In this document: piece by piece, positions 11,320 through 56,705 of the stretch
How the letters are laid out: each line of letters begins with the position of its first letter
How positions within the stretch are numbered: the stretch's first letter is position 1
Assembly (NCBI GenBank): GCA_903813345.2
Contig: CAIIXF020000001.1
Coordinates: forward strand, 17,050,001 to 17,114,000
DNA length: 64,000 nt
DNA from: Owenia fusiformis
Taxonomy: Eukaryota
Reading direction: 5' to 3'
Position numbers and translations under genes: made by a program
Notes under the pieces: generated by a model
Told to the model about the DNA's origin: nothing
Database searches by the model: none
Seen by the model: only the letters and a program-made list of their open reading frames with translations

Positions 11320-21742
<10,423 letters not shown>

Positions 21743-35189: not shown

Positions 35190-36075
35190 TTTTATGTCAC
35201 CACTTTTTTGGTTGGGGTGGTCTCCGTTTTTTTGACCGCGGTTGGTGGTTGGCGGTTGGCGTCTGTAACAAATTCTTACAACTTCCAATAACCAGAGACA
35301 TATAAAATGTGTTATTTGTCTCTGCAATAACTTAACAAATACTGACTTCAATTTTTTTCAAAATCATCTACAAGTTTTCAAAAGTTCAAATCTGACTAAA
35401 TACATTTAAGATTTAACCTTCAATGACCTTTTCAAGGTCAAAAAATGCAACGAATGGCAAGCAAACAAATTGGACATGACCGTCTCCTCTCGATTAATTG
35501 TCCTGCCTTAGGTCCTAACCTATCATTAACCAACCCATCGTTTCTACGGGAATCTATCCTAATTTTTTACTGAAATTTAACAATTTCGAAACAAAAATGA
35601 TTTGTTATTGTCATAGCTTACTGAGTACTGAACACGATATAATGTTACATGCGTTCTCTTATCGGGATTAAAAGTGACTTACCATTTCAGTACACCCATC
35701 GACGATGTTTGTGTGTTTAATTTATTGCGTTTCATATGAATGAACTTAATGCAATGTTACATGCGTTTTTTTCCAAAGTGACTAACCAGGATGAAATTCA
35801 TTGGTCTTCTAACAACTGAAACATCACTTAAAAATATGACATTACACACCACGACGATGTAACGTTTTCATCGTGATTTGAAATGATTAATTATACGTTT
35901 TTAAATCACGACCTAGTAAAGGTACTATAGTCATAGGATTCCCAGTTTTAGTTTTACTTCTAATTTTGCATTTTTTCATCTTTATGTAAAAGACCGTCAG
36001 CCGACCACCGACCACATGTACCCAACTGTGGAGAGTGACTGGTCGGTGATCGGTGGTCGGCGGTCGGTGTTTTTC
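35190..36075. mobile_element. Degenerate Helentron/HINE-like fragments (TGTCACCAC end motif, GGTCGGC/GGTTGGC micro-repeats)
   Basis: TTTTATGTCACCACTTTT at ~35190, then GGTTGGCGGTTGGCG; CCGACCACCGACC and GGTCGGCGGTCGG at ~36000-36070. The same motifs occur at 17870-17961 and 61572-61690. Confidence 0.4.
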
Positions 36076-36308
36076 GTAAACCCATTTGTATTCCCCCTTC
36101 ATGATATTTGAAATGTTCTGTACCAAGAATAAATTCATTGAAGTTGGCCAGTAATTAACATATAACCTCCAAAAAGTCATGTTGATTCCTAAATATAGAT
36201 TTTGGAATGAGAGCATTCGTTTCAGTTTTGATTGGACGATCCTCGTACACTTAGACAGAAGACAAATTATATAATTTTGTTTTGCTTCATATCAAATACC
36301 CGGGATCA

Positions 36309-37900
36309 TAGTCCCTGATCTGATTTCCAAAAGGCCTCTAGGAAAGGTTTTTTTTGTCCGGTACTTTCCTACATGAAATGATTGTACCGTTTGAAAAAAC
36401 AGGCTTCCCTCATAAAGAAAACACATCTTATATTGATAGAAACAGGGGCAAAAGGCACCAAAATGGGGTTAGACAAGGTGGCATTCTGAAGTCTCATTTT
36501 TTGTCATCACAATTCCAGGAAAACCACCAGATGGATTTACTTCAAATTTTCACACATGTTACACGGTAAGAAGTTCTAGAGCTGATTAACTTTTTGGAGG
36601 CCATCTTGCATTCTGGCGGCCATGTTGGATTTTTTAGATATATCTTGGCATCGCGATTCCAGAAAAAACACTTAACAGATGTACTTCATATTTTCACACA
36701 TGTTATATGGTAAAAAGTCCTAGACCTCATTAGTTTTTCGGTGGCCATCTTGCATTCTTGCGGCCATCTTGGAAGTTTTAAGATAAACCTTGTAATAACG
36801 AGATGGCCGCCGAAAAGTTAATCAGTTGAAGAACATCTTACCATGTAAAAATTTGAAGACAATCCGTTAAAGTTCCTGGAATCACGATGACAAGATTTAT
36901 GTAAAACTTCCAAGATGGCCGCCAGAATGTAAGATGGCTGCCGGAAAGTTAATCAGCTATAGAACTTCAATCTATTAACATGTGTTCAAATTTGAAATAA
37001 ATCGGTTAAGTTGTTTTCCTGGAATCGCGATGACAAGATTTATCTAAAAACTTCCTAGATGGCCACCAGAATGCAAGATGGCCGCCGAAAGAGTTAATCA
37101 GCTCTAGAACTTCTTACCATGTAACATGTGTGAAAATTTGAAGTAAATTCGTTTGGTTTTCCTGAAATCGCGATGACAAGATTTATCTTAAAACTTCCAA
37201 GATGGCCGCCATAATGCAAGATGGCCACCGGAAAACAAATGAACTCTTGGACTTCTTACCATGTAACATATGTGTGAAAATTTGAAGTAAATCTGTGAAG
37301 TTGTTTTCCTGGAATCACGATGACAATTGCCATTTATCTAAAAATTTCCTAGATGGCCACCAGAATGCAAGATGGCCGCCGAAAAGTTAATCAGCTCTAG
37401 AACTTCTTACTATGTAACATGTGTGAAAATTTGAAGTAAATTCGTCATGGTTTTCCTGAAATCGCGATGACAAGATTTATCATAAAACTTCCAAGATGGC
37501 CGCCAGAATGCAAGATGGCGACCGGAAAATGAATGAGCTCTAGGACTTCTTACCATGTAACATGTGTGAATGAAGTAAATCTGTTCAGTGGTTTTCCTGG
37601 CATCGCGATGACAAGATTTATTAAAAACCTTCAAGATGGCCGACAAAATGCAAGATGGGCGCTGAAAAGTTTTTCAGCTTAGAACTTCTTACCATGTAAC
37701 ATGCGTGAAAATTTGAAGTAAATCCGTTTGGTTTTCCTGAAATCGTGATGACAAGATTTATATTAAAACTTCCAAGATGGCCGCCAGAATGCAAAATGGC
37801 CACTGGAAAACTAATGAGCTCTAGGACTTCTTACCATGTAACATGTGTGAACATTTGAAGTGCATCTGTAAAGTGGTTTTTCTGACCAGATCAGGGACTA
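36309..37900. repeat. Satellite array of ~143-bp monomers (about 2 inverted plus 7.5 forward copies), bracketed by a 14-bp inverted motif
   Basis: The anchor TGACAA recurs at 36888, 37031, 37174, 37321, 37468, 37609 and 37749. Orientation flips near 36800. TAGTCCCTGATCTG at 36309-36322 pairs with CAGATCAGGGACTA at 37887-37900. Confidence 0.9.
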
Positions 37901-38159
37901 ATAGGTTATATTTTGTAGTCATGGTCTTGATGAATGTTTTTTTCATGGTCTTCCACTGATAGATCTTGAAAGCCCATGGTTTATTCTTGGGAAAACAAAA
38001 AAGCCGATTCTGTTTTAACATGAGCGTTCAATTCGTAGTTGAAAACCCATGGTTTTGATGATTGTTTTGATGGTAAGCTTTAAATGACGCACTGGTCAAA
38101 CTCAGCTCATGAAGTACTGTAGTGTCAATTATGGGGTTTCTCGACTTTATATATATATA

Positions 38160-39093
38160 GGGGTTATGCACTGGGAGGTTTTGGATACAGGGAATATCCC
38201 AAGCGATATTTCATGTATCCAAACCGACCGTGATAACTGGTGTATCTCATACTTGAGTGGGTTTAGGGTAGATTTATCGCATCCTACGACCCCTTTAGAT
38301 TCTAAAGTGGTCGTAGAATTCGATAAGGGTAGATATAACCTTTTCCACCTTTTTCAAATGACAAGATATTTATATTTAACATTTTCGTAATATTCTTTTG
38401 TTCAATACAATGAAATTGTAACATTTAAACTTAAAAAGATTAAATTTTAAAATTAAAAAATTAAAACTTTTGATATTTAAACTTTTTTAAACTTTTAAAA
38501 AATTCCCGGGAGCGGACTGGATATATTATATCTGCCCGCATTTGGCCTGGAGCGGGACATATACAATATATCCTGCCCGCTCCTCGGATACGATATATAT
38601 TCCCCGGTGATATCTACCCCAAACCCACTCAAGTATCAGATACATAAGGGTTATGTACTGGGAGGTTTTGGATATGGGGTTTATCCAGAGGGAGATATGC
38701 ATATCTACCTGAGGGACCGTAGGGACCGAAGGTAGATGTGCATATCTCACGAGGGAAGAACCCAATATCCAAACCGACCGTACATAACTGCTTTATCCTA
38801 TACCAAGTTTTCTAATTTTCTTTCGATTTTTTTTCAATTTTTTTTTATTTTTTCAATTTTTTTCACATTTTTCTAATTTTTAAAAAAAAATTCTATTTTT
38901 TTCAATTTTTTAATTTTTTCACATTTTTTCTTTTTTTCAATTTTTAAATTTTTTTTTCGAAGCGGGAAGATATGCCTGGAGCGGGAGATATGGCGGGAGA
39001 TATGGAGGTTCAGGATATGGAAACCTCAAAATCAGGATACAGGATATATCTTACCAACTTATCTCCCTAAAACTCGACTTGGCATAGGATAAA
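38160..39093 (+). mobile_element. Two abutting hairpin-plus-inverted-repeat elements (units 38160-38644 and 38648-39093)
   Basis: Each unit begins GGGTTATG(C/T)ACTGGGAGGTTTTGGATA with a long imperfect hairpin, followed by an inverted-repeat pair around a variable spacer. The second unit recurs at 51745-52143. Confidence 0.75.
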
Positions 39094-39399
39094 TGGTGTT
39101 ATGTCTTCTGGAAGGCCCAGATAACTAGATGACATTGGAAATTGTAACTTGTAATCCCGGGCTTGTAATTGGCTCTAAAGTTTAGATGCTGACTAAGAAA
39201 AATTAGAACAACTGAAATATACTATATGTTGCAGAATGACAGGTGCCCAACTCTAGAATTTCGTGAATGTGGTAACTGCGTCATTTGTGATCAACCACTT
39301 GAAGAAGAAGAACGACGAAAAGTTTATCGTTTGTCTCCAATTTGTTCGCTAAAACCAAAGCTAGATTAGTACATGGTGGTATAAATAACAAATACCACC

Positions 39400-42300
39400 A
39401 TGGATATCTCTAAAATAGCAAAGGTGATGGTGAAGTCAGTCTCGACAGGTCAAGTGAGTGTTTTATTTTTAAGTTTCAAAAATATTTCTGTTGCATAAGT
39501 TTTCAGTTTTTCATTCCCCGGGAATTCAGACTGACCGATGTACACGAATAAAGTATTTGCCGATCCGTAAATCAGCTGGTCTACCATTAGACTATTACTG
39601 TTAGACCTCAATGAACAGAATTTCTATCATATTATTATTAAAACTACAATTGCGGACCACAGACACGGGAACAAGAGTTCACCCCCTCCCACTTAGACTG
39701 TATCCTTCGTCTGAATAAATATTCAGACTGTAAGTCACCTATTGTAAAATGTGGTGTTGTATAAATGTTACAAATAAGTTTGTTAAATGATAAAATGATT
39801 ACCTTATAAAGTACTTACAATATTATTTTTTCGTATATTGTCCTCTTACTGAAGATATTCATAAAATGTACAGACGCTTCTTGTAGCGGAGCCATTGATT
39901 AGGTCAAGCCATTTTGGCAATGCCAATTCTCACGATAAACGAGATTTAGCCAGTGACGTCAGTCTATTTGTAAACAAATAACACGTGGAGCGGACGGAAG
40001 CGTGTTGATAAATTCCATTTGTGCGGGAATTTATTAAATCTAGTCATTTATTATCATTATCCCGATTAATTTTCTTCATTTATAGTAAATAGAGCGGAAA
40101 TATTCATGAAGAAGGCCGAGGTAATCAAGTGGTCATGTGTTGTCAAAGTTCAAAATTTGCATATCTCGTTTGGATCTCGTGAACTCAAACGTGCTTGACA
40201 TTGATTTCGCGATGTACTTATAAACACATCCTGAAGTTTTGGTGAGTCTGAACATTTCATTATTTTATATCAACTTGTACCCGCCTTATACAAATATTTT
40301 TGCTTCTAGTTTAAGGTACAGCTGGAAAGTAACATTTTGGTAAAAAATTACATGTTATTTTCTGGTACAAAATAAAGTATGAAGGCATGTGTCAATTTCC
40401 TTGCTTTTTTCAGGAAAGTATCATTACATTGTCTTCTTTTAGAATATCTGGTAGGCGTTTAATGGGAACTACAGGAAATTCTGATATTTCACACTTTCTA
40501 TTTTTCCATATTTTCTTTCAAAGTTCCCAGACAACACAGGAGCTACCATTGGCCTGTTTATAGATATTCTAAAAGAAGACAGTGTAATGATACTTTCCTG
40601 AAAAAAGCAAGGCAATACACACATGCCTTCATACTTAATTTTGTACCAGAAAATAACATGGGCAGGTATAGCAAATTTTTACCAAAATGTTACTTTCCAG
40701 CTGAACCTTAAGATGAACATCTCTTCAACATATTCACCAATTTTCAAGGTGAACATTCTTGTAATAAACGAGAAATTTATGTGCAAAAAATATCACCGAG
40801 ATTTCCACAGGAAATATATCAATCATAACAGACCGAATATTATATTCGGTCTGTTGGATACATACTACCCTCCCACTCACTATACCATGGGCTTTCCCGG
40901 GGGGCTTTCAACTATCTAATTGAAAGCCCATGGTATTACATAGAAAAAAGATAATAATTTTTTCTTTGTACATGGGGTGATTTAATTTTTCATCCTGGAC
41001 TAGTGGTGCGGACTCTTTTTCTTCAAAAATATTGATGTTTTCAAATGAATACACATCTTTGTCATGATTTTTGAGATTTGGCAGTTATACAGCGAGATAA
41101 CACCCTAAAGGATTTGGGAAAACATATTTCGTACCTCAATCTTGCTATTATGGCAAGAAAATACTGCAAATGAAAGCACTGCAAAATTTGTGAAATTATG
41201 GTCATTATCATGGTAACGGGAGTCGAGGGTATGTGGAGCAACATCACAATTTAATTTTTCTACATGTAGAAATCAAACATGGCGGAAAACAGAAATTCTA
41301 CTTCTTATAAGTAAGTGTCGAAGTTACCCCATCTCTTATGTCGACTTTGCCCCAAACGTCAATGTTACACTCCTTTGCCCTCGATATATTGTAATAATCT
41401 TCCTCTCCAATATCTAGCAATTTCATTTGAAAGATCTCTTGAAATAAGAGTATTTGTATCTTTACTCTCTAGACACCTTGTAATCCATAAAGCTTCTTCA
41501 ACATTTTCATTGGAAATTAGTTCTATAAAGGCCCATATTTAGAATAGATATGAAATAAACACCTTTGGAGGCCTACCTGGGATAATCTTAAACAGTGTGC
41601 TTCTCTTGCATTCTTGAGGTCCTGTACTTGTAACATGTATTTTAAACATCATGTTTTTACTTTCAGAGTGTAACAATGGAAAGCCTTTGGGAGAAACAAA
41701 ACTGTTTCATCACATTCCTTCGAAGGTTTGGATGACAGTTATGTCGGCTCTCTGCCAAACGAATCAGTGCTCTGAAACCTCAGCTAGATGCAAACAATGT
41801 AGGTCCTTGTCAACAATCATCTTTTCAAGCTTATCCCTTTCTTTCAAGGCTGCAAGATGCTAAATCCAAATTTTCTTGCAAGTTAACAATCTCAAGTTCA
41901 CGCATAGTGCATATGTTCTAATCAACAAGATTTACCTGCTATAAAAATTCAATCTTTCTACAGTATATGATAGATGTGAAATATGATTATTAAAAATAAT
42001 GCCAGTCTCCTTCATCTGCATGTATGTCGCCTGGAGAACAATTAATGATTACTATTAGATGGTATGAACTTAAAAGAGTTACTGTATTGCTGTATTACTA
42101 TTTATCTCTCACTTTTCTTAAAGGTACGTATGATTGCAATTGGCTTGGAGGAAGTAGGACTTGATGAGTATGTCAAGGGAGAATTCTGGGCAGGAGGTGA
42201 GCTTTATTTTAAAATTTTAGTGTAAAGCAACATGAAAACATTATCAACTTTTACTAAAGAATCTATTCAAAATACACTGTTTAATTGATATAGTTCAGTA

Positions 42301-45300
42301 ACCATATATCACATGGTATGAGAATACCTTTGTTTGCTTTGCAAGAAATATTTGGGAAATTACAGTCAACATCGACATCCAGTAAAAAAGAAGAAAAGGT
42401 CCATAGTTTGTATTCATTTCATTTCATTGCCTCCCTTTGCAATATTCAATGATGATATTTTCTGTTCCAGAGCTGTATATAGACAACAACAAGGAGTGTT
42501 ATAAAAAATTACAATTTACAAGGTAAATTATTCAGTAATTTATTTACTAGTATATTCTGTACCTTTTCTACATATGGAAACATTTTAAAGTGATTAATGT
42601 GTAATGTTTGTAGTAATCTTTGTAGTAATTTTAAAAACATGAATGACCACCAAAAGACAATTTTTCTATTGACGAGTGAGGGGATCATATTAAAAGAATC
42701 TGCTGACATGATAAAGTATCTAATGATTGGTAGAGACAGGATTCTTATATCAAAGTAACATTTTATATGTCATTTGAAGAATGTAATCCTATTTTCTTTA
42801 CTTTATTGCTATATTTACTGTTACTGAAAATTGTATATCGGATGTACGTTTGGCCCTAAAAGGGCATCAGTACTAATAAAATCCTATTATGACATACATT
42901 ATATATAATTTAGATGAAATACATTTTTTAGTTTTAAAATTTAAATTAAATTTAGTATAAATAAAAATAATCTTCTTCAGTCCTGGGCTGCTAAGCAGTA
43001 TAGGAGCAGTCTTCGGAAAACAAGGACGTACTCAATTATCAGAGGTATAGTTGAGATATTAACCACATGCATATAAATGTTGTATAATTTTATGGAATAA
43101 TTAGTGCAGTCAGAATGTGGGTTTCGGCGTGCGTTCAGAGGGATTTTATGGGACATAATTTTTCATGTTACTACTATGATTATACATATTTGTATGGATT
43201 ATTAGATCTTAGTTTTTCAGCTTTTAGATTTTGTGGCCATTTTACCCCCCATGGGCTAAAATTTGGACCCCTACTATATAATTGGGCAAGAACTCAAAAA
43301 ATCCTCAGTGGAATGTTTCCAAATTACTAAGTTATATTGGTATAGGCTAATTGAATATATGATAAAAATTTCATGTCACATGGTTAACTGGTTGCCATGG
43401 AAATGGATAAAACATGCCCTTCGGGTGTCAATTTTCAGGCCAATTTTTCAGGACTGACAGAGTCATTTCATGCATATTTTGTCACCAATGTGCTAGGAAG
43501 GGTTAAAATGTCAATAGAAAACTTCTATAATATATAAGCAACAATTGTATGTAAAGATCAGTCCACAAAACCTCAGATTTTGGCCTTGTATTGGTCCATG
43601 ACTTATACAGGGGTCTATTTCATAGACTCGAGCTCCCACATTGGATGGATGCTATAACTTTTGAAATAATGGAGATACAGGTCTCATTTTTTCAGATCTT
43701 CTTAAATGGTTAGTTTTAAGTATTCTATTTTACTTTGGGAGCTGACATGTGATTGGTTGCCATGGTAACCAGGGTTTTAGGGAAATTCCGACCCCCACAT
43801 TGGATGGATGCTATAACTTTTGAAATAAGGGAGATACATGTCTCATTATTTCAGATCTTAGACAATGATTGATTATAAATATTAAATTAGACTTTGGGGG
43901 CTGAAATTTGATTGGTTACCATGGTAACTAGAGTTTTATTGAAATTTGGACCTCCTCAATTGATAAATGCTTTAATGTTTGAATTCAAGCAGATACAGAT
44001 ATCATCATTTCAGATCTAAAAAATTAATTAGATTTGTGTATTGAATTAGACTTTGTAGCTTAGCATTTACTTGATTGCCATGGTAACCATGTTTCGTCGT
44101 CATGGTACCCCTAATTTTTTATTTCAGTCTTACCTTCATTTGAGAATGGTCAATTCACAACATGTTATACCAAAATGCTCAAAATTATCATTTTGCTCTT
44201 TATTTCAGCAATTTATCCTGTATGTCTGACAGTATAGCCTCATTCCATTCTACTAGTTCTCACACATATTCAGACTCCCAACTTGTTTTTACTCATCATT
44301 ATCGTTTTCATCTTCCACAATTGCCTCTTAATTAAAAATATCAACAATTTCTATTGGAAAGAAGGATTCTTTTGACCATTCTTGTGTTAAAGATTCGTCA
44401 GGGAATTCACAGTTCATTCATGCAGTGTTGGGCATAATGGTAGAGCTGGGTTTAGGCTGGTGGGAATGTGTCCATACATAGGTTGGATAATTTACCCTCT
44501 TCAAACGTGAAAGAAAATGTCAACACCGTCATAAGTGAGGGCAGCACTGTTCTGTTTTTTCTGTATCTCATGGGAAACAGCTCATCTCGTAATCTATTAG
44601 TGGCAGTTATTTTTCTATTTCTGCTGTTTTGTTGTATTTCTGCACTGGAGGAATCTGATCCAGTAAACGCATTGAAGGCTAATATAGCTTCACACAGGAC
44701 TTGGTCCTAGGTTTGCAGCTACAGGGGTTGGGTTGAGCTTCTGACATCTAATGGGACAGAGTTCATATCAGTTGAGGTTCTTAAGGTTATTTTCTTCATA
44801 ATAGGAATCAATATAGAAATTCCTGACACAATAAAATCCAAAGTTGAATTGTTCACCAGTAAAAGTACAGCAGATTAACAAAAATATATTTGTAACTTAC
44901 ATCAATAGATAACAATATGAGCTGTTTCACATAAGATATTCTCCAAAACAGAACAGTCCTGCCCTCACTTATGGAGGTGTTGACATTTCAACTCTTCCCA
45001 TCTTTCAAGATTGGTCCTTGACTGCTTTTATAGCAGCTAATATAATGCAATGAATTAAATGATGAACTCTTCCATCTTGTAATGATTGCTCATTGTAACA
45101 TTTGAAGAGGATGGATGATAAAACTTATATTTGGAAGTGGAAACATTACCCCCCGTTTCCCAGAAGTTCACTGTATATAAACCTTGAGGGGATCCTCAGC
45201 TCAGGTGGGTTACTTTTGACATTTGATATGGCAATGGACCCAAATTTTAGGATCTGGTATGAGAATGCTCTCCAAATTATGACTTGAGAGGTATAGCAAT

Positions 45301-48300
45301 GGTCGGATTTGGGAATGGTTGTGAAAAATATGTTGCCCCTCACTTGTTGCACATGTATGGCATTGATCTAGTATATCCTTAATGTGAGGTTGTTTTTGGT
45401 TGTTTTCCTCAATGACATGTCTTCTTCTCGAGGCATTAGAAATTTTGAATGGCCATGTTTTCATATCTGGATATTTGGTATGGCACTGGTCATATATTTG
45501 GGCATTTGGTATGGCTTTTGGGCATTATTTTGGTTGATATCAGAACACATTCAAATTTGACAGATTGGATGGGAACATATTGATATCTGAGGGTTCAGCC
45601 TTGGACCCCAGCCAATTTTATATACAGTGAAACCACAGGGACCAGTCTTAACCCATTCTGCCAAGTCCAATACTGCATGAATGGACTATATCCCCTGAGG
45701 ATCCTTATCTCCAGAATGGTCAAAACAATCCTTCATTCCAACAGAAATTGATGTTAAAGAGGAAATTGTGCTAAATGAAAACAGTAATGATGAGTTCAAA
45801 TGAACAAATTAGGAGTCAGAACTTTTGTAAGAACTAGTCATATGGAATAAGGCAATATTGTCAGACATACATGTATTGTTTACTATTCTAGTATTTGATA
45901 TTTTATGAGCCAAACAATGTTTGCATCTCTAGTATTATTGAGTCATGAGCATGTAAATCATATAAAATAGAAAAAAAACAAAATTAAGAATAAAATGGTA
46001 ACTTTGAGCAATTTGGTATTTTATGTCATGTATTGACCTATCTAGAATAAAGGTGAATCTGAAAACGAAAACAGCAGTTACCATGACAATGAAACATGGT
46101 TACCATGGCAGACAAATAAATCCTAGCTTCCAAAGTCTAATACAATACACACATATTATTATTATCTTACATCTGAAAAGATTATCTTATCTGGCTGTAT
46201 TTAAGAGTTATAGTGTTCATCAGTTGTGGAGGTCTGAATTTCAACAAAACCCTGATTTCCATGGTAACCAATCAAATTTCAGCTCCCAAAGTCTAAATCA
46301 ATACTTTAAATCAATCATTGTCAAAAATCTGAAAAAATGAGACATGAATCTCCCTTATTTCAAAAGTTATAACATCCATCCAATGTTGGGGTCAGGATTT
46401 CCTTAAAACCCTGGTTACCATGGCAACCAATCATATACAAGCTCCAAATGTATATTAAAATACTGAAAACCAACCATTTATGAAGATCTGAAGAAATGAG
46501 ACCTGTATCTCCCTTATTTCAAAAGTTATAGCATCCATCCAATGTGGGGGTCGGAATTTCCCTAAAACCCTGGTTACCATGGCAACCAATCACATGTCAG
46601 CTCCCAAAGTAAAATAAAATACTTAACACTAACCATTTATGAAGATCTGAAAAAATGAGACCTGTATCTCCCTTATTTCAAAAGTTATACCATCCATCCA
46701 ATGTGGGAGCTCGAGTCTATGAAATAGACCCCTGTATAAGTCATGGACCAATACAAGGCCAAAATCTGAGGTTTTGTGGACTGATCTTTACATACAATTG
46801 TTGCTTATATATTATAGAAGTTTTCTATTGACATTTTAACCCTTCCTAACACATTGGTGACAAAATATGCATGAAATGACTCTGTCAGTCCTGAAAAATT
46901 GGCCTGAAAATTGACACCCGACGGGCATGTTTTATCCATTTCCATGGCAACCAGTTAACCATGTGACATGAAATTTTTATCATATATTCAATTAGCCTAT
47001 ACCAATGCAACTTAGTAATTTGGAAACATTCCACTGAGTATTTTTTAAGTTCTTGCCCAATTATATAGTAGGGGTCCAAATTTTAGCCCATGGGGGGTAA
47101 AATGGCCACAAAATCTAAAAGCTGAAAAACTAAGATCTAATAATCCATACAAATATGTATAATCATAGTAGTAACATGAAAAATTATGCCCCATAAAATC
47201 CCTCTGAACGCACGCCGAAACCCACATTCTGACTGCACTAAATGATATACAGTAATTATATAATACAAAAATAGTTGTGTGGAATTTTGAGATATTCATA
47301 TCTTGTATTTGTATACATAACACATGCACATTATAAAATATTTACATATTGTATATTATTTTGCATTGTGTTCATTGTATTTCTACAATCTTTTAGGCAA
47401 ATAAAGAAAAGGTGACTGGAAATTTCAAAGGAGATAGCTACCAGAATGGAGGAGCTTTGGTTGTGAAAGCAGGTATATAATGCAATAACAAATATACTTA
47501 TATAGAGACATAAGAATATCCTTCAAATGAGAGCCAATTTTTTTATGTGCCATGACCATCTGCTATTATTTCTCTATTGTATATTACGGTATATGTTGAA
47601 ATAATATAGTAATAACTAAACAATAGAAAAATGTAAATGGATTGATGCAAAGCCTTTGTAATTCAAAATGTCATCACTATTGAGAAATTACTTGCGCAAA
47701 ATGTGTTGATTCTGTTAATTGATAACATGTTGATTCTATTGCATAATGTGATACCCTATCTGTCTGGAAGTATTGCTTGAAAGGAATTTATGTTGTTTTG
47801 TTTTGATGTGTTACCCCAAAAATAAAATAAATTGGTGTGGTCAGAGGTCAGATCAATGAATCAACATATGTCAAAAACATAATTAAAGTTTGGTTTGTTT
47901 GCGTCTCCACTGACTCTTCTAAAACAAAACCCTTTATTTATTGAGTATAAACCAAAGGAATACAACAGACCCAGACTGTAGACTGTCACAGTATAAAGTT
48001 TTCTTTTCCCCCTTAACGATTGCTTCCAGGCCCATAGCCAGGGGGTTCGAAGGGTTTGGAACCCCCCCCTGGCCGAAAATTCTTTCAAAATCATGCAGTT
48101 TTTCACCATTTTGAACACTTCTCAAGTGATTTTAGCCATATTTGGGCCAAAACTGTCAAATGTGAACCCCCCTGGAAATTAATGAAAACTGAACCCCACT
48201 TGGCAAATCCTGGCTACCGGCCTGGCTTCAAAGGTATTGACATAAAGCAATGTTTTGACCTGACAAATTTCCCATTCTTCCTTGACAGGCGGGGATGTTC

Positions 48301-48443
48301 TACTGGATTTCAAGCAGAAGACCGCAACAGACCAAGTTTCTTTGGCTGATGTTCTAATGGCACTTGGGATTGAGGGGGAACCACCAGTAGAACAAGCAGC
48401 ACCTACAATGGTTTGTGATGACACTGCATGCAAACTTGAGTAG
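39400..48443 (+). CDS. PRXL2B: Peroxiredoxin-like 2B / prostamide-prostaglandin F synthase homolog (SelU3 family), predicted selenoprotein, 201 aa with Sec at codon 41
   Basis: Exons 39400-39453, 41667-41798, 42124-42196, 42471-42522, 42981-43044, 47397-47472, 48289-48443 (606 nt). Protein MDISKIAKVMVKSVSTGQSVTMESLWEKQNCFITFLRRFG-U-QLCRLSAKRISALKPQLDANNVRMIAIGLEEVGLDEYVKGEFWAGELYIDNNKECYKKLQF...GNFKGDSYQNGGALVVKAGGDVLLDFKQ...VCDDTACKLE. In-frame TGA at 41733-41735. Confidence 0.9.
40315..40707. mobile_element. 393-bp MITE with ~135-bp TIRs and TTAA TSD (Kolobok-like GG...CC termini)
   Basis: TTAA|GGTACAGCTGGAAAGTAACATTTTGGTAAAAA...TTTTTACCAAAATGTTACTTTCCAGCTGAACC|TTAA. Located in intron 1 of the PRXL2B-like gene. 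Confidence 0.85.
43102..47240. mobile_element. 4.14-kb non-autonomous DNA transposon with very long TIRs, TAG...CTA termini and 3-bp TSD AAT (Academ-like)
   Basis: AAT|TAGTGCAGTCAGAATGTGGG...CCCACATTCTGACTGCACTA|AAT. The outer ~550 bp are nearly identical, followed by ~160-bp sub-repeats and diverged inverted similarity to ~44380/45715. No intact transposase ORF. Confidence 0.85.
48027..48224. mobile_element. 198-bp MITE with 16-bp imperfect TIRs (CAGGCC...GGCCTG) and apparent 5-bp TSD GCTTC
   Basis: GCTTC|CAGGCCCATAGCCAGG...CCTGGCTACCGGCCTG|GCTTC. Located in the last intron of the PRXL2B-like gene. Confidence 0.8.
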
Positions 48444-48994
48444 AATCAGAAAGACAGTAACAATGGACAATGAACTATTTCTAGTAATATGCTTTTGAGG
48501 TGGATCGGGGCATTCTCAAAATATTTCTAAATGCAAAATAATTATTGGCTCATATTTATTATATTTTCATATTAATACCGTTATATTCCGAACATAGTCA
48601 TAAACACTCTGTTTGATATGTGTTTCCTATAGTAGTAAGTAATAGTTCGATGATTGGATCATAGATTATTCTATATTTTTATTAATTTTATACAGAAGCC
48701 ATTTGATCAAAGCATTATATTTATAGCAATTAATTCTTAATGCATAGCTAGTTTATATCTTGTCTTGAATGACATTGCGTTCAGCTGTATTTGCTTCTTG
48801 TGAATTTACACAATCATGTCTTGGTGTATTATTTTGTATCAAAAGCCTTTAATGTGAAGTTAGTAACTTGAATGGTCAGTAACTTAATGATCAGTGATCA
48901 GTGCAATTGATTGTTCAATGACTTTATTGATCAATATTTTAACTGACTAGAACCTATGTACATGTCGTATAATGTATTTTCAACCTTAGTGAGA

Positions 48995-49072
48995 GATTTC
49001 TTATTCAACAGAATGTATGACGTTGTTTTCCGGAAACCATGTATGGCTAGAGAATAACTGAAAGGAGAAATC
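48995..49072 (+). promoter_or_regulatory. SECIS element (type 2) in the 3' UTR of the PRXL2B-like gene
   Basis: Core AUGAC (49017) and UGAA (49059). Helix II GUUGUUUUCCGG pairs with CUAGAGAAUAAC at 11 of 12 positions. Unpaired AAA at 49034-49036, mini-helix CCAU/AUGG, helix I GAUUUCUU/GAGAAAUC. AATAAA at 49088-49093. Confidence 0.85.
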
Positions 49073-49999
49073 CTAGTATGTTGGAATAATAAAACTCGAT
49101 TTGAAGTTGTACTATGCTCTTAGTTGTGTTATTGATATTTCATCGCAGATATTGCTTTATATATCTTAAAAAGATGGCGGTAGTATAATGATGAGCCTGG
49201 TTCAAAAGGAAAATTTGCCACTCCGATTTACTTATCTGCGGTCATAATAGAAATGAAGATAAGCAAAAGAGATCGAGTACTTGGGCAAGGCTACGATTTC
49301 TTAGCTATGACAATGTTCACTGGCATGTAGCGATTATAGCGGTCCTGTCTTGGCTTATTGAATTGTTACGAAGTTACGTATGCGGTGCGGAAGTTAGAGA
49401 GCAAATGACTATCATTTCAATGTAATAGTTTATGCAGGAAAATTGAGATTAGGCCATTGGAATATTTCTTTCATGCATTTGTAAAACATTACCCACTCAT
49501 AGGTCATACTTATCGTTAAACCAATAACTCAAATATATGCCCTTGTACACCGATCACCTGTTGAAATTAATACAGGCCGATTTCAACAAATGTAAAGGGC
49601 GATATATTTAAAATCGTATTCAAGCATGACCACGTCCCAACTTCTTTTGTTTTCTTTACAACTAAGCTATGACTGCAGTCTATTCAGTGTTGCGTATCGA
49701 ACCTTGTTTATTATAAAAATAGTGCAACAACAAGCAGAATTCACACATTTACCTTATACTTATTCTCAACTGAAGACATTGAATTTATCTCTTAGGTTTT
49801 ACATTATAAATATCTTAACATGCAGAATACGAAAATAGAGGCTTAGGCCCAACTTTGTATGAATTTTATGAGAATAATCTGATTTTAGAGAAATGAAAAG
49901 AAAAATGTCCACACCCTACACAAAATATTTATGGTTCCCCGGGAATACGTATGTGCTGCTTGTATATTAGGATCGTATTCCAGTTACAGAAAGAAGTAC

Positions 50000-52143
50000 A
50001 TATCATGCTAAACTATATACAACAGTTATGCACTTGGAGGTTTTGGATACAGGGAATATCCCGAGGGATATATAATTCATCTTCCCTTGGTCCCTTCGGT
50101 CCCTCGGGAAGATATATTGTATATCCCTCGGGATATTCCCTGTATCCAAAACCTCCAATTGCATAACCCCTATATATTGGCCAAGGGATAATCCCAATAT
50201 CCTGAACCGCGACTATAGGATAATATGTTTATCCCATACCAATCTTGGTCATCTGGTTCACATTGTTAAATCGTGGAAACATTTTAGAATATTCATGTCC
50301 AGTTTTGTTTTCTTGGCCGTGGGCGGATTTTCATGTTCTCTCAAATATTCCCATATTTATTTTCTCGAATTTTTTATTGATTAAGTGGATGCTCTTTCCC
50401 CCTTTTTAACTATCAAACAGACCCTGATTGTCTGTGTTTTCTCCATTGCTGTTTACAGTCATTCCGCGAACGTTACAAATTATGAACAAACATGCAGGCG
50501 GCGATTATGACGTAGCGGGCAGATATACTATATCTGCCCGCTTGGAGCGGGACGTAAAGCTTTATCCCATGGTTGCAAGGAGGATATAGATCGAATATCA
50601 CATGATGATATATTTGATATGTGGATCAAGATATCATATTTTAGCAAACAATTTACAAACCATCGAATATCACTTTTAAACTATCGAATATCACATCTTA
50701 AATAGAGGATATCCTATGATTTATGAGTGATATGATTTTTATCCACGAATGGATATGATATCTGCACGAGTGAGCGTAGCGAGAGAGTGCAGATATCAGC
50801 ATCCATAAGTGGATTAAAATCATATCACGAGTAAATCATAGGATGTTCTTTATATTCCATAGTTAAATTCATCATCAGAATCGTCGGGAATTAAGTGATT
50901 TAAAACGAATTTTCCAAACGATACGGCGATATTGAAACTTAGCCTCGTTTTGAGTCTGAAGTAGCAAAAATCCATAAACCATGGCATACGGCGCCGTATG
51001 TCATGGCTAAAAGCCCCCCCCCCCCCTAAAACACCGTATGCTATGGTTAAGTGAAAATTTGCCAAAAATATCATATTTTACCACTGATTTCAAAAATACC
51101 GTTTTTATTTTGACATGTTATCCTATGGATATCATGCTAAATATGGAATAATATAGGAATATCCTATGGCTCTGAAAAAATATCACTTATATCCATGAGT
51201 GGATATTGATATCTTCGCCAGTGAGCGCAGCGAATGAGTGAAGATACTGATATCCATGAGTGGATATAAGTGATATTTTTGAAAAAACATAGGATTGCCC
51301 GTTTATCCCATTGGGAATTATTATCCAGCGAACATTGAATAGTCAGATAAATTGCAATGGAAATTCCATTTGGTCTGACATTTTGATTGCGATAATTCAA
51401 CGAACGTCATATACGTGACGTAACAGAGTGGTTTGTATTTAATGCGAACGCCGTAAAAACAAGATCCCAAAAAATAAAAATATATAATAAATATATAAAC
51501 AATCGTTTTGCTGAATTAATAAAAAAAATTGAAAAAATCAAAACCATCGAATATCACTTTTGAAATCATCGAATATCACTTTTGAAACCATCGAATATCA
51601 CCTTTCAAAAAGTGACATTCGATGGTTTCAAAAGTGATATTCGATGATTTGGGAATTGTTTGCTAAAATATGATCTTCATCCACGTATCAATTATATCTT
51701 CACGTGATATTCGATCTATATCCTTGTAACCATGGGATAAATAAGGGTTATGTACTGGGGGGTTTTGGATATGGGGTTTTTCCAGAGGGAGATATGCATA
51801 TCTACCTGAGGGACCGTAGGGACAGAAAGTAGATGTGCATATCTCACGAGGGATGAACCCAATATCCAAACCGACCGTACATAACTGCTTTATCCTATAC
51901 CAAGTAGAGTTTTCAGTAGTACAAGGTGTAAAAAATAAACAAATCATTCATATGCAAAGTCATTTTATTGCATTTCCACTTTTTTTGGAAGCGGGAAGAT
52001 ACGCCCCGAAGCGGGAAGATATGCACCGAAGCGGGAGATATGACGGGAGATATGGAGGTTCTTGATATGGAAACCTCAAAATCAGGATACGGGATATATC
52101 TTACCAACTTATCTCCCTAAAACCCTACTTGGCATAGGATAAA
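50000..52143. mobile_element. Cluster of stacked hairpin-plus-inverted-repeat elements, same architecture as 38160-39093
   Basis: Long hairpins at 50022-50170, 50703-50850, 51153-51300 and 51745-51888. Inverted pair at 50560-50700 / 51600-51741. Unit 51745-52143 shares both ends with 38648-39093. Confidence 0.75.
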
Positions 52144-53142
52144 TCAAGATAATTTCTACTCGCATCTAGTCTATTCCACATATTTGGGAAAAGTGTACAG
52201 GAAAATCTCCATGTTCAATTGATGTATGATCAATATATACGAATCGAATGTATTCTCGTGTGCATTACAATATCCACATTGAAACATTTTTGGCCTGCAA
52301 TGGACGTATAATAAATTAGAATATGAGGCCGTGTTATCATTCCAATGTAAAGTCATGGTATTTACTGTGGTATTGGGTTGCAAGCTAATATCAGATTCAA
52401 TGCAAATTAATCATCTAATATCAGATGCGCGATCAGTCCAATAATCTAATTTCAGGTCATCAGTTCGATATCTAGCACTTGTTCTAACGACACGGTATTA
52501 CTAGGCTATCATATTATAAATACACACACATATAAAACAATCAAACTGGTACACGATATAAGCACGACTGCTCTTTCAATTGAGTATAAATGTTGATAAA
52601 CTTACCCGGAAGCCAAGACATACACGTTTAGACGATGCTATTTTCAGTTCAGTGTAAGAGTAAATGCCCGGATATCGAGGCTTTTTCGTGTAAAGTTTTA
52701 ACCAAGCATCTAAAATCGGGTTATATTGCGTGTAGAATTTATCGATATCAGGGCCGCTACATGCCAGTGAATGTTAAAAGGACAGTTTTTTCATGGATAT
52801 CCAAAAATCAGTTGACATTGCCCATTGAGTGGAATAGGATTTCTGTTATTTGACTACTAAAAAGTTAGGACATATACAGTCTCTAACCTTTTTGTGCGTA
52901 GTGTTGGCCCGACGTTGGGTTTCTGTTATAATTGTCACATTTACGATATGATGTATTCTTCAACATTTTGAATGATACAATCGTTAGCCTACCTTGGCAA
53001 CAGAATCTGAAAATTAAAATACTTCTACAATTCATTACACATAATAATTACTAAAGAAGTTTATGTTCAGTTTGACTTAAAATTCATACATGAATGATAA
53101 TTACCAATGAAAGTTTAATTGACTTCAAATGTATACCTGATA

Positions 53143-53577
53143 CTTATCCCATCTAACGAAGTTGGGGGAATAGAGAACACCGTCCTTCTGTCCGGGCAAT
53201 AATTAAGATACCATTGATCCAATATGCCGTTTATAGTTTATACGCATATATGCCCTATGTAAGTTAAATTTGAAAATGGCCGCCGATTTCAAAATGGTTG
53301 ACATTTTACTGTCGATTTTGCAATATTTCAGATACAAAACAATATTATTGAATACTCGGAAGCATGGCACTCTGTCTTACGACACCTCGGCTAGTAGGCG
53401 GCCATTTCGAAAAATCGTGGCCATTTTACACGTGATATATACCTTTTTGCTATAACCATGAAAAACTAATGAAGCGAGTTGGTTGAAGATATCTTTTTTG
53501 TTTGATATATTTTTGCTGTACATCTAAGGTCGCCATTTCATGTTCGATGAGGTTTGCTACGCCTTGGCATTGCTGTT
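53143..53577 (+). mobile_element. Helentron/HINE-like interspersed element
   Basis: 5' short hairpin (CCCATCTAACGAAGTTGGGGG), CCGTCC-type micro-repeat, AAAATGGCCGCC core motifs, and a 3' GC-rich short palindromic segment. Confidence 0.45.
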
Positions 53578-53639
53578 ATCTAGTTACTAGTCAGTTTGAC
53601 TTCAAATTCATACATTATGATAATTTCTAAAGAAATTCT

Positions 53640-54110
53640 GTTCATGGAGTATTCACCCAGCGGCTTATCACCGTAATCGGCTGTAGGAGTGTTACGAATA
53701 TCCTTAGTTGTTGGTATTATTGGTGACCATAGCATTGAAGGCTGTTCAGAGATTGTAGTTGAAGTTGTGCAAAATAAACACACAACGTGCTTTGAAAAAG
53801 ATGTCGTGTCGTTTGCAGACCGCATGTTAATTTGGACCAGATGCATTTTCTGTCAGCGAGAAGCACGGACCTCTGCCAGGTTACCTCTTCTTCAGTGGTG
53901 TCTAGGCTCAATAAATATACTCATTTATCCTTTGAGCCTACTACCAATAGATCTGGCTCCGGATATGTGGCGAGAAGCAGAAGAAATATGTGATATTCGA
54001 CCAAGACAGTCTCCTCCCTCATTCCCACTAACGGGGTCTTTATACCTTTATATCATTGCTTCTGGAAGAAGGCCTACAGTAAATCCAGTTTATGATCCAG
54101 ATCTTTTTGT
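53640..54110 (-). pseudogene. Possible decayed SGNH-hydrolase-like ORF of a DIRS/Ngaro-type retroelement
   Basis: Broken minus-strand frames give, in order, KKIWII..W, FLLLLATYPEPDLLVV and SMLWSPIIP, separated by stops and frameshifts. Motif resemblance only. Confidence 0.3.
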
Positions 54111-56705
54111 GTTGTTGTTGTTATTTTAACACAAAACTGCCTGTTCCTGAATGGTCATGAATTGATGACATAATATGCAGTTGATCGAGTTGCCTTGGTA
54201 TGATCAGCAGTATCACGTAGAACACTGTTATATAATAGAGATTTTTCTTTATAGTATCAACCTTAAACCTATACGTTTTATTTCCAGACGATAATTCCAT
54301 GATTTGTGGATGGGTTTAGGGGAGGTTGGTGGGTAAACATTTATATTTAGCAAAAATACGGCAAAGCTGTCTTCCAAACTATGAATAATGGTAGTTAAGT
54401 GAAGCCCTTCTGCTCTTACGCGCTGAAGTTAGGCTGTAAACAGGTAAAGCTTCTCGTATTAAAACAATATGGCGTCTCCAAAAGAGTCTACTACTTTTTG
54501 GCGTTGCTGTCGTTTATATATAACAATTTATTCATTGGTTTATGGAAAGAAAGGAGGGGGCATTGTGATACTCATCTGTTTTCAAATCATCAATGTGATG
54601 GGATTCTTCAAAGGAACTGAACTCTGCGATCTCTCACGATATATGGGTACCTGGGATTTTGTTATTCTCTTCCGTTGAAATCTCCTCGGCTCAAAATTCT
54701 CCTCTAATTAAAAATTAATAAACAGAAAATATTTGTTGTATTCATTATATTTTTATATTTATTTCTGTTTATTCATCATATCTTCTTATTTTACATCTTG
54801 TACAATTGACCTTTGTAAGATAATTACCAATGCATATATATATATAGAATCAAGAGCTTTGACTTTGCCAAAAATCTGTTCAAATTTATCAATCTGTTTT
54901 TAAGTTTGACAATAATATATATAGCAAAGAAAAAAGTATACAAAAGTCATAACTTAGCACCTTTATTTCAACATAATATACAATTATAAATAAATAATAT
55001 TATATACAGATATATAATTGGTCTCTGACCATGCTGCCGTTTAGAGTCAAGTATTTACAAAAGTATTTACAAAATGATGTACATATGGTTAAGTTTGTGC
55101 TATCAAATGATGCCCTTTGTGGTTTCTGATCATAGTTCCAATTTTGTTTACAACTTATTGTTTCATCCATTTATTCAAACTAAAACGTTAAAATGATAAG
55201 TTGTTCCCAAAATGGTCTCAAGATAAGTGTCATCATAACACGACTATTATTTATATAAGGATACTAAACATTGTAATATAAAACGAGCAAACAATTGTAA
55301 CATGCGTTCTGACCTCTATGTCTATGTTGTAACTTCATTTGTGAATGCATGTGCAAATATCAAGTGCACATCGGAAATGTCTGCCAAGAAAATCAGTTAT
55401 CCTTGATTACAATAGTATACCTATTTTATTTTGCAAAAATATAAACAAGTTACAAAAACGTTATACTTATAGTATATCTTTTTATTGCAAGAGCACCTTG
55501 GTTTGAAGTTGGAGTTTGGAGTAGAAGGACCTTAGTCTAGATAATTTCTGGCAGTCTGCCACAATTGATATTTTGCAATATAGAGGTTAAGTTGGCATAT
55601 GTGACTTGGTCTGTTCAAATTTTGTTTATCCAGACATTATTTTTGAGAAGATGCACGTGGTATGTCTATTGTGAAGGTAAAAAGTCACTGCTAACAATGA
55701 GGTCATGATTTGCATTGTATACAATTGAGTTTACATACAAAAACAAGTGTAATATAAGCATTCTGATTGTAGTTGACACCTAGTACAAAAGACTGGTTTT
55801 TTGGTACAAATGTCCCTTAGCTGCTGCCTTTAAGAAGATGTATATACATATTTACAACATTCCCTTACATATCAATATCTACATTAACCAGGGACATTAA
55901 CTTACTATTTGGTTCTTGGAATGCAAGTTTTAATGATTATTGATATTTATAATTACGAGTACAAATGAGCAAAGAATTGTTCGCAAAAAGGAGCGGTAAC
56001 AGACATATAAGTAAAACACTGTAAGGATAATCTCACCTAATATAACCTTTACTTCATTCATTGTTCACGATGTTGCACGCGGATCATATGTCTAACCATG
56101 ATCCGGATCTATACATAGACGTAAACAAGGTCAAACACATATACACTGTATCATGGTATAAAAAAAGCTCTGCATTTTAGTAGAAGAAAATACAAGTAAG
56201 TCGTTTGAATTAAATGGCAATGACCAAAAAAGTAAATGGAATCTTCCACATCGAAATACATTCCCTAAAGCATGTCATGATTGTTGTCACGTAAGCTAAC
56301 TTTAGACTGTTGATTTAAAAGTACTTAAACTATGATAAGAAAATAACTTAAAGTAATATTGATAACCAATCATGATGACTTTTCAATTTTCATAGGTCAA
56401 ATTTAGAAAGTGATACTATTTTTATATGTGATAAATATCTATACCACACGTGTACATAGTCATGGTTATTTTCGGATGCTCCAAATTCAACTTTGTCTGT
56501 CTGCGTGTTTCATTCTCCTCGTTTAGTACCCTAAGCATCATTACCACATCATTACTGTGATTTTAACCTTCAATGTTCACTGTCTGTCTTAATGCTTCAT
56601 GTCCCTGACTGGGCGGGTATTCGCACATCTTTCACGTTACTGCCTGAACTTTCAGTCCAAAGCATCTTTGGCACATCTTGGATACCTATAGTATCAATCA
56701 GCTTA

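Follow-up and report, generated by a model that had tools for sequence, protein, structure and literature searches.

Exchange of selenocysteine (Sec) and cysteine has been documented in the SelU superfamily of proteins (PMC3316567, PMC13134290). Within this superfamily, Sec-containing forms of SelU3 were published from invertebrates in 2012 (Jiang et al., PMC3473315), and in the same account the annelid Capitella teleta possesses 34 selenoproteins, one of which is a SelU. According to the naming in PMC13134290, prostamide/prostaglandin F synthase, abbreviated PM/PGFS, is the same protein as SELENOU3, or PRXL2B. In the human prostaglandin F (PGF) synthase, as described in PMC12938796, the attack on the PGH2 endoperoxide is made by Cys44, and the resolving residue is Cys47.

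Here, we analyzed a stretch of 64 kb from the genome of Owenia fusiformis, which is referred to below as the window and to which all positions refer. The window contains an expressed gene for a thioredoxin-fold enzyme, the UGA-encoded catalytic residue of which is almost certainly Sec. We assign a probability of about 0.92 to the reading that this is an annelid SELENOU3/PRXL2B gene in which the UGA at codon 41 is read as Sec by means of a type II SECIS element. The locus resembles the invertebrate Sec-SelU3 genes described in PMC3473315 in its subfamily, as judged from the nearest named relatives, in its SECIS-like element of the AUGA_AA type and in having been misannotated in a genome project for the same cause, while it differs from them in species. 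The SELENOU1 (PRXL2A) proteins of fish and birds, as presented in PMC3316567 and PMC13134290, also belong to the SelU superfamily and share the UxxC logic; however, they represent a different paralog, and every one of the window protein's nearest named relatives is a PM/PGFS and not PRXL2A. This is a genuine selenoprotein gene of an already known kind, and it reveals no new mechanism or family. The original prediction, which was made from the DNA alone, had likewise stated that the protein family is not new.

Structure of the gene

Joining the exons from the window sequence gave a gene of seven exons on the + strand (39400-48443), in which every intron has the form GT..AG. The joined coding sequence is 606 nt in length and comprises 201 codons and the stop codon TAG. 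Its sole internal stop is codon 41 (TGA, 41733-41735), which lies within FLRRFG-TGA-QLCR; the 160 codons behind it remain open. Seven GT-AG exons, 201 codons and a single internal TGA had been predicted, and this structure was reproduced exactly. The features are as follows:

39300-39399, + strand, partial 5' UTR (stranded RNA depth of 71 in bin 39300-39426)
39400-39453, + strand, exon 1, coding part (18 codons from the ATG)
41667-41798, + strand, exon 2 (44 codons; holds the UxxC active site)
41733-41735, + strand, in-frame TGA, proposed selenocysteine codon 41
42124-42196, + strand, exon 3 (contains Met65, the start of the public 137-aa annotation)
42471-42522, + strand, exon 4 (predicted, with RNA joints)
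42981-43044, + strand, exon 5 (predicted, with an RNA joint)
47397-47472, + strand, exon 6 (GDSYQNGG motif of AhpC-TSA_2)
48289-48443, + strand, exon 7, coding part (stop TAG at 48441-48443; C-terminal C-x5-C tail)
48444-49110, + strand, 3' UTR, inferred extent (ends past the sole AATAAA)
49088-49093, + strand, polyadenylation signal AATAAA

The transcript starts upstream of 39300, and RNA reads cross the left edge of the mapped stretch. The start ATG has the context ACCATGG and is preceded by an in-frame TAA at 39382-39384. At the 3' end, the AATAAA at 49088 is the only AATAAA or ATTAAA within 48444-49700, and its last base is position 49093, where the original prediction had ended the gene. 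Intron 5 carries a 955-nt inverted repeat.

Expression and splicing

Raw stranded RNA reads (X22), contigs (X2 and X12) and a DNA contig (X1) were mapped on 39300-43090. The X22 reads were one-directional in the bins that contain exons, with the first mate mapping to the minus strand in 25-124 reads and to the plus strand in 0. The joint between exons 1 and 2 (39453>41667, GT..AG) was crossed by 68 X22 reads and one X2 contig, and that between exons 2 and 3 (41798>42124) was crossed by 110 reads. For exons 3 and 4 (42196>42471; listed as 42194>42469, cut +2) there were 137 reads, and for exons 4 and 5 (42522>42981; listed as 42520>42979, cut +2) there were 194. Exon 5 is linked to exon 6 by loose ends at 43045, whose continuation in 162 reads matches the beginning of exon 6. 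Further downstream, the sequencing runs contain 0.48-0.88 of the words sampled from 48289-49093; among the indexed runs, none with such words is catalogued as RNA.

All four data sets (X22, X2, X12 and X1) span the TGA, and no letters other than TGA were listed in them at 41733-41735. X2 record 16 spans exon 2, and X12 record 12 spans it from 41676 onward, with no other letters in either. The TGA-bearing exon 2 is present and unedited in the mature mRNA. An RNA-seq check of this exon had been proposed at the outset, with TGT or TGC at 41733 and transcripts that skip or splice around the TGA named as observations that would speak against selenocysteine; the joints on both sides of the exon were recovered, and no TGT or TGC was listed at this codon.

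These results also bear on a further explanation, namely that the TGA arose through an error of assembly or sequencing or that the locus is a pseudogene in decay; we found no point in its favor. Against it stand the occurrence of the TGA in raw RNA reads, in contigs of two sets and in the DNA contig alike, the fact that the gene is spliced and expressed, two variants in exon 1 (39405 T>C, 39408 C>T) that are both synonymous, and a frame showing no further stop or frameshift in 201 codons. Within the reach of these data this explanation is refuted, and it has next to no chance of being correct.

Identity of the protein and conservation of the TGA

Among 11 close representatives of the family, 8 are named prostamide/prostaglandin F synthase, one is entered as 'unnamed protein product' and 2 are nameless, and the only PDB matches with an E value below 0.01 were PM/PGFS. 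The nearest named relatives, the domain and the motif support an assignment of the locus to SELENOU3/PRXL2B at the level of sequence comparison, and the PRXL2B/SelU3-type identity proposed earlier holds in view of these relatives. The residues from Met65 onward matched 9us9/9usa with an E value of 3.4e-22, and P0093 (residues 65-201 of the window protein) scored 61.3 bits with the Pfam domain AhpC-TSA_2 (PF13911), for which the cutoff is 27; the part behind the TGA is thus homologous as well as open, as had been predicted. The translation of exon 7 is identical to the C terminus of P0093, and a word-based search with the C-terminal part of the window protein returned only the protein itself and one other.

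Exon 2 aligned with residues 23-63 of PDB 9us9 (E 4.1e-6), and the TGA codon falls on the catalytic Cys44 of the human prostamide/PGF synthase (PDB 9US9). In 150 family representatives, this position is occupied by C in 82, by W in 22 (compared with DNA at one locus only, the query's own, L001), by S in 2 and by a gap in 2; the remaining 42 do not cover the site, and 13 of these start 2-5 residues past it. The motif RRFG-[C/U]-x-x-C-R is common to most of the 108 representatives covering the site. Moreover, TGA is present at the same codon in 7 of 7 homologous loci that cover it (L001-L004, L005, L006 and L011), and their frames remain conserved past the TGA. The original prediction had placed the TGA at the site of the CxxC motif of mammalian PRXL2B/FAM213B and had suggested a comparison of this codon among orthologs; both the Cys in the 82 representatives and the TGA kept in the seven loci bear this out.

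The likeness to human PRXL2B (9US9/9USA; PMC12938796) includes the AhpC-TSA_2 thioredoxin fold with its GDxxQxGG motif, the RRFG-CxxC-R motif, in which the predicted U lies on Cys44 and the downstream Cys on Cys47, and a length of about 200 aa. In contrast to the human enzyme, the window protein has the proposed Sec for Cys44, a QL dipeptide for VV and a C-x5-C tail, and the sequence identity is moderate.

The public protein CAH1773387.1 (Owenia fusiformis, 137 aa) is 100% identical to the window protein from Met65 on and, because it equals only this part, we regard it as a truncated annotation. The failure of annotation that had been predicted is therefore real, the public protein being a fragment that begins at Met65. 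The placement of its start at Met65 also agrees with a different scenario, in which the UGA is a true stop and either initiation at Met65 yields the 137-aa protein as the functional product or nonsense-mediated decay acts on the mRNA. However, a 137-aa product would lose both the active-site motif RRFG-CxxC-R and the strand-helix unit with which the fold begins. In addition, exons 1 and 2 are conserved in frame, exon 2 being 63% identical to P0001 across the TGA, the flanks of the TGA are conserved along with it in the seven loci, and the RNA depth is alike upstream and downstream of the TGA.

A SECIS-like element in the predicted 3' UTR

A pattern scan combined with folding revealed a candidate type II SECIS-like element with the following parts:

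49004-49085, + strand, type II SECIS-like element (pattern scan and fold)
49004-49010 paired with 49079-49085, + strand, SECIS-like helix I
49017-49020, + strand, SECIS-like AUGA
49022-49033 paired with 49047-49058, + strand, SECIS-like helix II
49034-49036, + strand, SECIS-like AAA
49037-49046, + strand, SECIS-like mini-stem and loop
49059-49062, + strand, SECIS-like 3' UGAA

The core hairpin (49017-49062) sits 27 nt upstream of the sole AATAAA. A strict SECIS scan of both strands of the window (128 kb) gave a single match, at 49017-49061 on the + strand, whereas 20 shuffles together gave 7 matches, or 0.35 per 128 kb; as a positive control, the same scan recovered elements downstream of homologs in 8 loci. 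The element is the minimum-free-energy structure of its fold, with a z-score of only -1.28, and 20 of 200 shuffles fold equally well. Between the core and helix I, the 3' side of this structure forms an additional small hairpin, an unusual feature in a SECIS. The Rfam model SECIS_1 (cmscan, E up to 10) did not match anywhere within 36000-56000, nor within 48400-49700 or 48970-49110 searched separately, and the homolog L001 matches this model at 27.5 bits. Structure and pattern scan, but not Rfam SECIS_1, thus identify the element, and we treat it as a SECIS-like candidate. When the SECIS candidates of six homologs were aligned with MAFFT, L002 and L003 were misaligned, and therefore no covariance model was built from this alignment.

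A second candidate at 49189-49297, found with a looser ViennaRNA-based scan, was rejected because of its inner part of about 100 nt, a non-canonical forced end pair and its position downstream of the polyadenylation signal. Matches to miRNA families at 50047-50145 and 51556-51657 were also discarded; they occurred on both strands, far under the gathering thresholds, in palindromic repeats.

The missing Rfam match is a second point in favor of a true stop, and the presence of a SECIS-like element stands against it together with the conservation described above. Overall, we consider it very unlikely that translation simply ends at this UGA. Another possibility is that a near-cognate tRNA (for Trp, Cys or Arg) allows readthrough of the UGA with no selenium involved, the hairpin at 49017-49062 being incidental. 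A UGA followed by C is a leaky termination context, and TGAC is present in the window and in L001-L004. However, the TGA sits at the catalytic Cys position, the closest homolog, L001, has a SECIS that Rfam detects, and a SECIS-like match in a 650-nt UTR is expected by chance only about 0.002 times, as estimated from shuffles. Sec forms are moreover known in the SelU3 family, as reported in PMC3473315. Readthrough without selenium is accordingly given hardly any weight. The reading of the TGA as Sec in a UxxC protein, which was the core of the original prediction, is supported by the Cys/TGA homology, the unedited mRNA and the SECIS-like element.

Proposed mechanism

We infer the insertion of Sec, the substrate and the reductant of the window protein as follows. 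The type II SECIS, which lies close to where the predicted 3' UTR ends, would serve to recruit SBP2, eEFSec and Sec-tRNA, and the UGA at codon 41 would be decoded as Sec. The resulting oxidoreductase of 201 residues would have a thioredoxin fold and the active site U-Q-L-C. In analogy to Cys44 of human PGFS, the selenolate may attack the O-O bond of a peroxide or an endoperoxide; a selenenylsulfide would form between Sec and the downstream Cys and would be re-reduced by a thiol system. Judging from its likeness to human PRXL2B, the window protein possibly possesses PGF synthase activity.

A C-x(2-5)-C pair was found at the C terminus in 27 family members out of 72 examined, among them forms with Cys as well as forms that are truncated after Sec. 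It is conceivable, but in our estimate rather unlikely, that this pair serves as a mobile second redox centre that resolves the selenenylsulfide or disulfide of the active site and shuttles electrons, in a manner resembling that of the redox centres at the C terminus of thioredoxin reductases. If this were true, invertebrate PRXL2B enzymes would be mechanistically unlike the human enzyme; the same idea takes the SECIS of the window as a variant missed by the Rfam model.

Significance for Owenia and the family

Our literature search found no paper dealing with both Owenia fusiformis and a selenoprotein. Owenia fusiformis belongs to an early-branching annelid lineage. The present analysis corrects the public gene model, in which the deposited 137-aa fragment is catalytically headless compared with the proposed selenoenzyme of 201 residues. 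In addition, Owenia fusiformis now contributes a Sec-form SELENOU3 with RNA support, which is useful for dating Sec-to-Cys conversions within the family. The gene is relevant to studies of redox defence or of signalling by prostaglandin-like compounds in this species, which is a developmental model.

Gene structure and protein identity

P0001, a 187-aa relative found with exon 2, was aligned to the window by tblastn and gave six collinear pieces on the + strand. A seventh exon (exon 5) was located separately. The exons, joined from the window sequence, are as follows.

39400-39453, + strand: exon 1
41667-41798, + strand: exon 2, with AG acceptor and GT donor, carrying the TGA at 41733-41735
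42124-42196, + strand: exon 3
42471-42522, + strand: exon 4
42981-43044, + strand: exon 5, recognised on visual inspection of the ORF list and verified in the sequence
47397-47472, + strand: exon 6
48289-48443, + strand: exon 7

All introns are GT..AG, and the coding parts sum to 606 nt, or 201 codons plus a TAG stop. The sole internal stop is codon 41, a TGA in the context FLRRFG-U-QLCR, and the 160 codons beyond it are intact; the seven-exon, 201-codon frame of the original prediction was thus recovered in full. The start codon lies in the context ACCATGG, with an in-frame TAA 15 nt 5' of the ATG. The predicted gene end, 49093, is the final base of an AATAAA, the only AATAAA/ATTAAA in 48444-49700.

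The residues from Met65 matched Pfam AhpC-TSA_2 (61.3 bits) and the structure solved for the prostamide/prostaglandin F synthase of humans (PM/PGFS; PDB 9us9/9usa; E 3.4e-22). Exon 2 aligned with 9us9 residues 23-63 (E 4.1e-6), placing U (the TGA codon) on Cys44 and the downstream cysteine on Cys47, with the window RR as the counterpart of Arg40 and Arg41. As described for the human enzyme, the two cysteines of the CXXC motif are Cys44 and Cys47, and the Cys44 thiolate is positioned for attack on the PGH2 endoperoxide, with Arg40 and Arg41 nearby (PMC12938796). Among 11 close representatives, 8 are named prostamide/prostaglandin F synthase(-like), 1 is unnamed in its source and 2 are nameless. 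The nearest named relatives are therefore PM/PGFS, in agreement with the PRXL2B/SelU3-type identity first proposed; SELENOU3 is PRXL2B (PMC13134290).

The protein also carries a C-terminal cysteine pair, C-x5-C (48402-48422). Of 72 family members inspected, 27 (P0002, P0007, P0011 and P0012 among them) have a C-x(2-5)-C pair, and these include both Cys forms and forms truncated after Sec. The pair may act as a second site of redox chemistry or metal binding.

Transcription and the reality of the TGA

Mapping over 39300-43090 drew on four sequencing runs: X22 (stranded RNA, raw reads), X2 and X12 (both stored as contigs) and X1 (DNA). In X22, the bins containing exons held reads in a single direction (25-124 vs 0 in the opposite one), and repeat-free introns held none. 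The splice joints 39453>41667, 41798>42124, 42196>42471 and 42522>42981 were spanned by 68, 110, 137 and 194 X22 reads, respectively, and 162 loose read ends at 43045 continued with the opening bases of exon 6. In addition, a 599-nt X2 contig spans the exon 1-2 joint and shows no other letters in exon 2. All four runs cover 41733-41735, and none has an alternative letter there; the X1 contig over 41383-41874 differs in the intron only. The directional reads, the joints and the unvaried TGA therefore exclude an assembly error, RNA editing of the TGA (the RNA runs list no other letter) and, among the joints listed, skipping of exon 2 as the main form, since joints were found on both of its sides; minor isoforms may exist, with 23 further joints outside that listing. 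Inclusion of exon 2 and the letter at 41733 were among the points on which the original prediction had asked to be checked, and both bore it out. The gene is thus expressed, and its spliced mRNA has UGA where the catalytic residue is encoded.

Two synonymous coding variants were found in exon 1, 39405 T>C (33/97 X22 reads) and 39408 C>T (only in X1). Two insertion variants occur in the 5' UTR, at 39334 and 39349 (CAC in 10/56 reads, TAAAG in 18/66).

The TGA codon across homologs

A metagenome scan gave 12 homologous loci, of which 7 span the TGA site and the other five match the C-terminal part only. The homologous codon, whose comparison had been proposed with the gene, is TGA in all seven (L001-L004, L005, L006 and L011), with conserved sequence on either side; the seven loci fall into roughly four separate lineages (L001/L005/L006, L002, L003/L004 and L011). 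An exhaustive profile-free search with P0001 returned 1057 proteins at E <= 0.001. At the site, the best 150 have Cys (82), "W" (22), Ser (2) or a gap (2), and 42 representatives do not cover it, 13 of which start 2-5 residues past it. P0001 has W where the L001 contig, with 99% identity to P0001, carries TGA; the W forms are thus most simply explained as gene calls reading TGA as Trp, this being the one case compared with DNA.

A candidate SECIS element

Rfam SECIS_1 (RF00031) gave no match in the searched window segments; on the homologs it gave a sub-threshold 27.5 bits in L001 and nothing in L002-L004. We also applied a strict scan, which called for AUGA plus one nucleotide, then a helix with 10 or more pairs and no more than 1 defect, an unpaired AA at a distance of 10-15 nt, a 7-40 nt loop and a 3'-side GA. 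On both strands of the 64-kb window, the single match was 49017-49061 (+ strand), 574 nt past the stop codon and 27 nt 5' of the AATAAA. In 20 block shuffles the scan matched 7 times in total (0.35 per 128 kb), which by arithmetic amounts to a chance expectation of about 0.002 per 650-nt UTR on one strand. At an 8-pair threshold, an element was found downstream of the gene in 8/12 homologous loci, with one further match on the opposite strand of L010. Those found by the custom scan include the following.

L002, 864-912: SECIS-like element
L005, 3438-3481: SECIS-like element
L007-L010: SECIS-like elements

Of these, the one put to Rfam was the L002 element, and it went unreported, an example of how RF00031 has limited sensitivity to SECIS elements in this gene family.

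When 48990-49095 is folded, the minimum-free-energy structure includes the SECIS-like hairpin, which lies in the presumed 3' UTR.

49004-49010 with 49079-49085, + strand: helix I
+ strand: AUGA in an internal loop, AAA in an internal loop, and 3' UGAA
+ strand: helix II, 9+2 pairs

Because the mini-stem has 3 bp and a 4-nt loop, the element was assigned to type II. One weak point is the fold z-score of -1.28, though that of the L001 SECIS region is similar (-1.32); another is a small extra hairpin that separates the core from helix I on the 3' side. The presumed 3' UTR also holds a 15-nt tandem repeat (2.2 copies, 48862-48895).

Repeats and neighbouring features

Intron 5 holds a foldback element whose inverted-repeat arms (43101-44055 and 46287-47241; 955 nt, 92% complementary) lie 2231 nt apart, each comprising about 3 tandem units of 159 nt.

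43635-44055: 159-nt tandem units
46225-46707: 159-nt tandem units

High-copy repeats occupy introns 1 (39680-40950) and 4 (42600-42980), with a summed DNA contig depth of 10^4-10^5, vs about 45-90 in unique sequence, and RNA reads in both directions. A MITE-like inverted repeat pairs 40329-40449 with 40562-40682. Near-perfect palindromic hairpins at 50047-50145 and 51556-51657 match several unrelated Rfam miRNA families, on either strand and with scores well under the gathering thresholds; they look more like MITE-type repeats than miRNA genes. A chance tblastn row of P0001 marked an exon at 11326-11436 (- strand), whose translation (CWKK..ERPTF..L) we take to resemble the C-lobe of a Src-type tyrosine kinase, which suggests that a kinase gene, unrelated to this one, lies upstream on the other strand.

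Interpretation

The Cys44 alignment, the TGA in 7/7 loci and the SECIS-like hairpin support the reading of the TGA as selenocysteine in a UxxC thioredoxin-fold protein, and we consider this a genuine selenoprotein gene with a probability of about 0.92. By analogy with eukaryotic Sec decoding, SBP2 would bind the kink-turn core of the SECIS and eEFSec would bring Sec-tRNA to UGA-41. If the protein acts as the human enzyme does (PMC12938796), the selenolate would attack an O-O bond, form a selenenylsulfide with the cysteine three positions further along, and be re-reduced by a thiol system. For the annelid protein, a peroxidase-like role and prostaglandin synthesis seem equally likely.

Invertebrate SelU3 (PM/PGFS-like) proteins that contain Sec were described by Jiang et al. 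2012, who list 34 selenoproteins, including one Sec-SelU, in the annelid Capitella teleta (PMC3473315). Since this kind was already known, the gene in the window is an expected ortholog in a further species. The SelU3 Cys forms seen in that study were deuterostome in every case (PMC3473315); our inspected family sample also holds protostome Cys forms (one spider, two insects and one flatworm). Our literature search found no paper naming both "Owenia fusiformis" and "selenoprotein". Such genes are described as routinely misannotated (PMC3473315), and the truncation foreseen for this one has occurred: the deposited protein CAH1773387.1 (P0093; "unnamed protein product", Owenia fusiformis, 137 aa) matches residues 65-201 of the 201-residue product with 100% identity, and therefore begins at the first Met past the UGA, without the active site. 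The finding is mainly of value for correcting this annotation and as one more case for the study of Sec/Cys evolution in SELENOU3.
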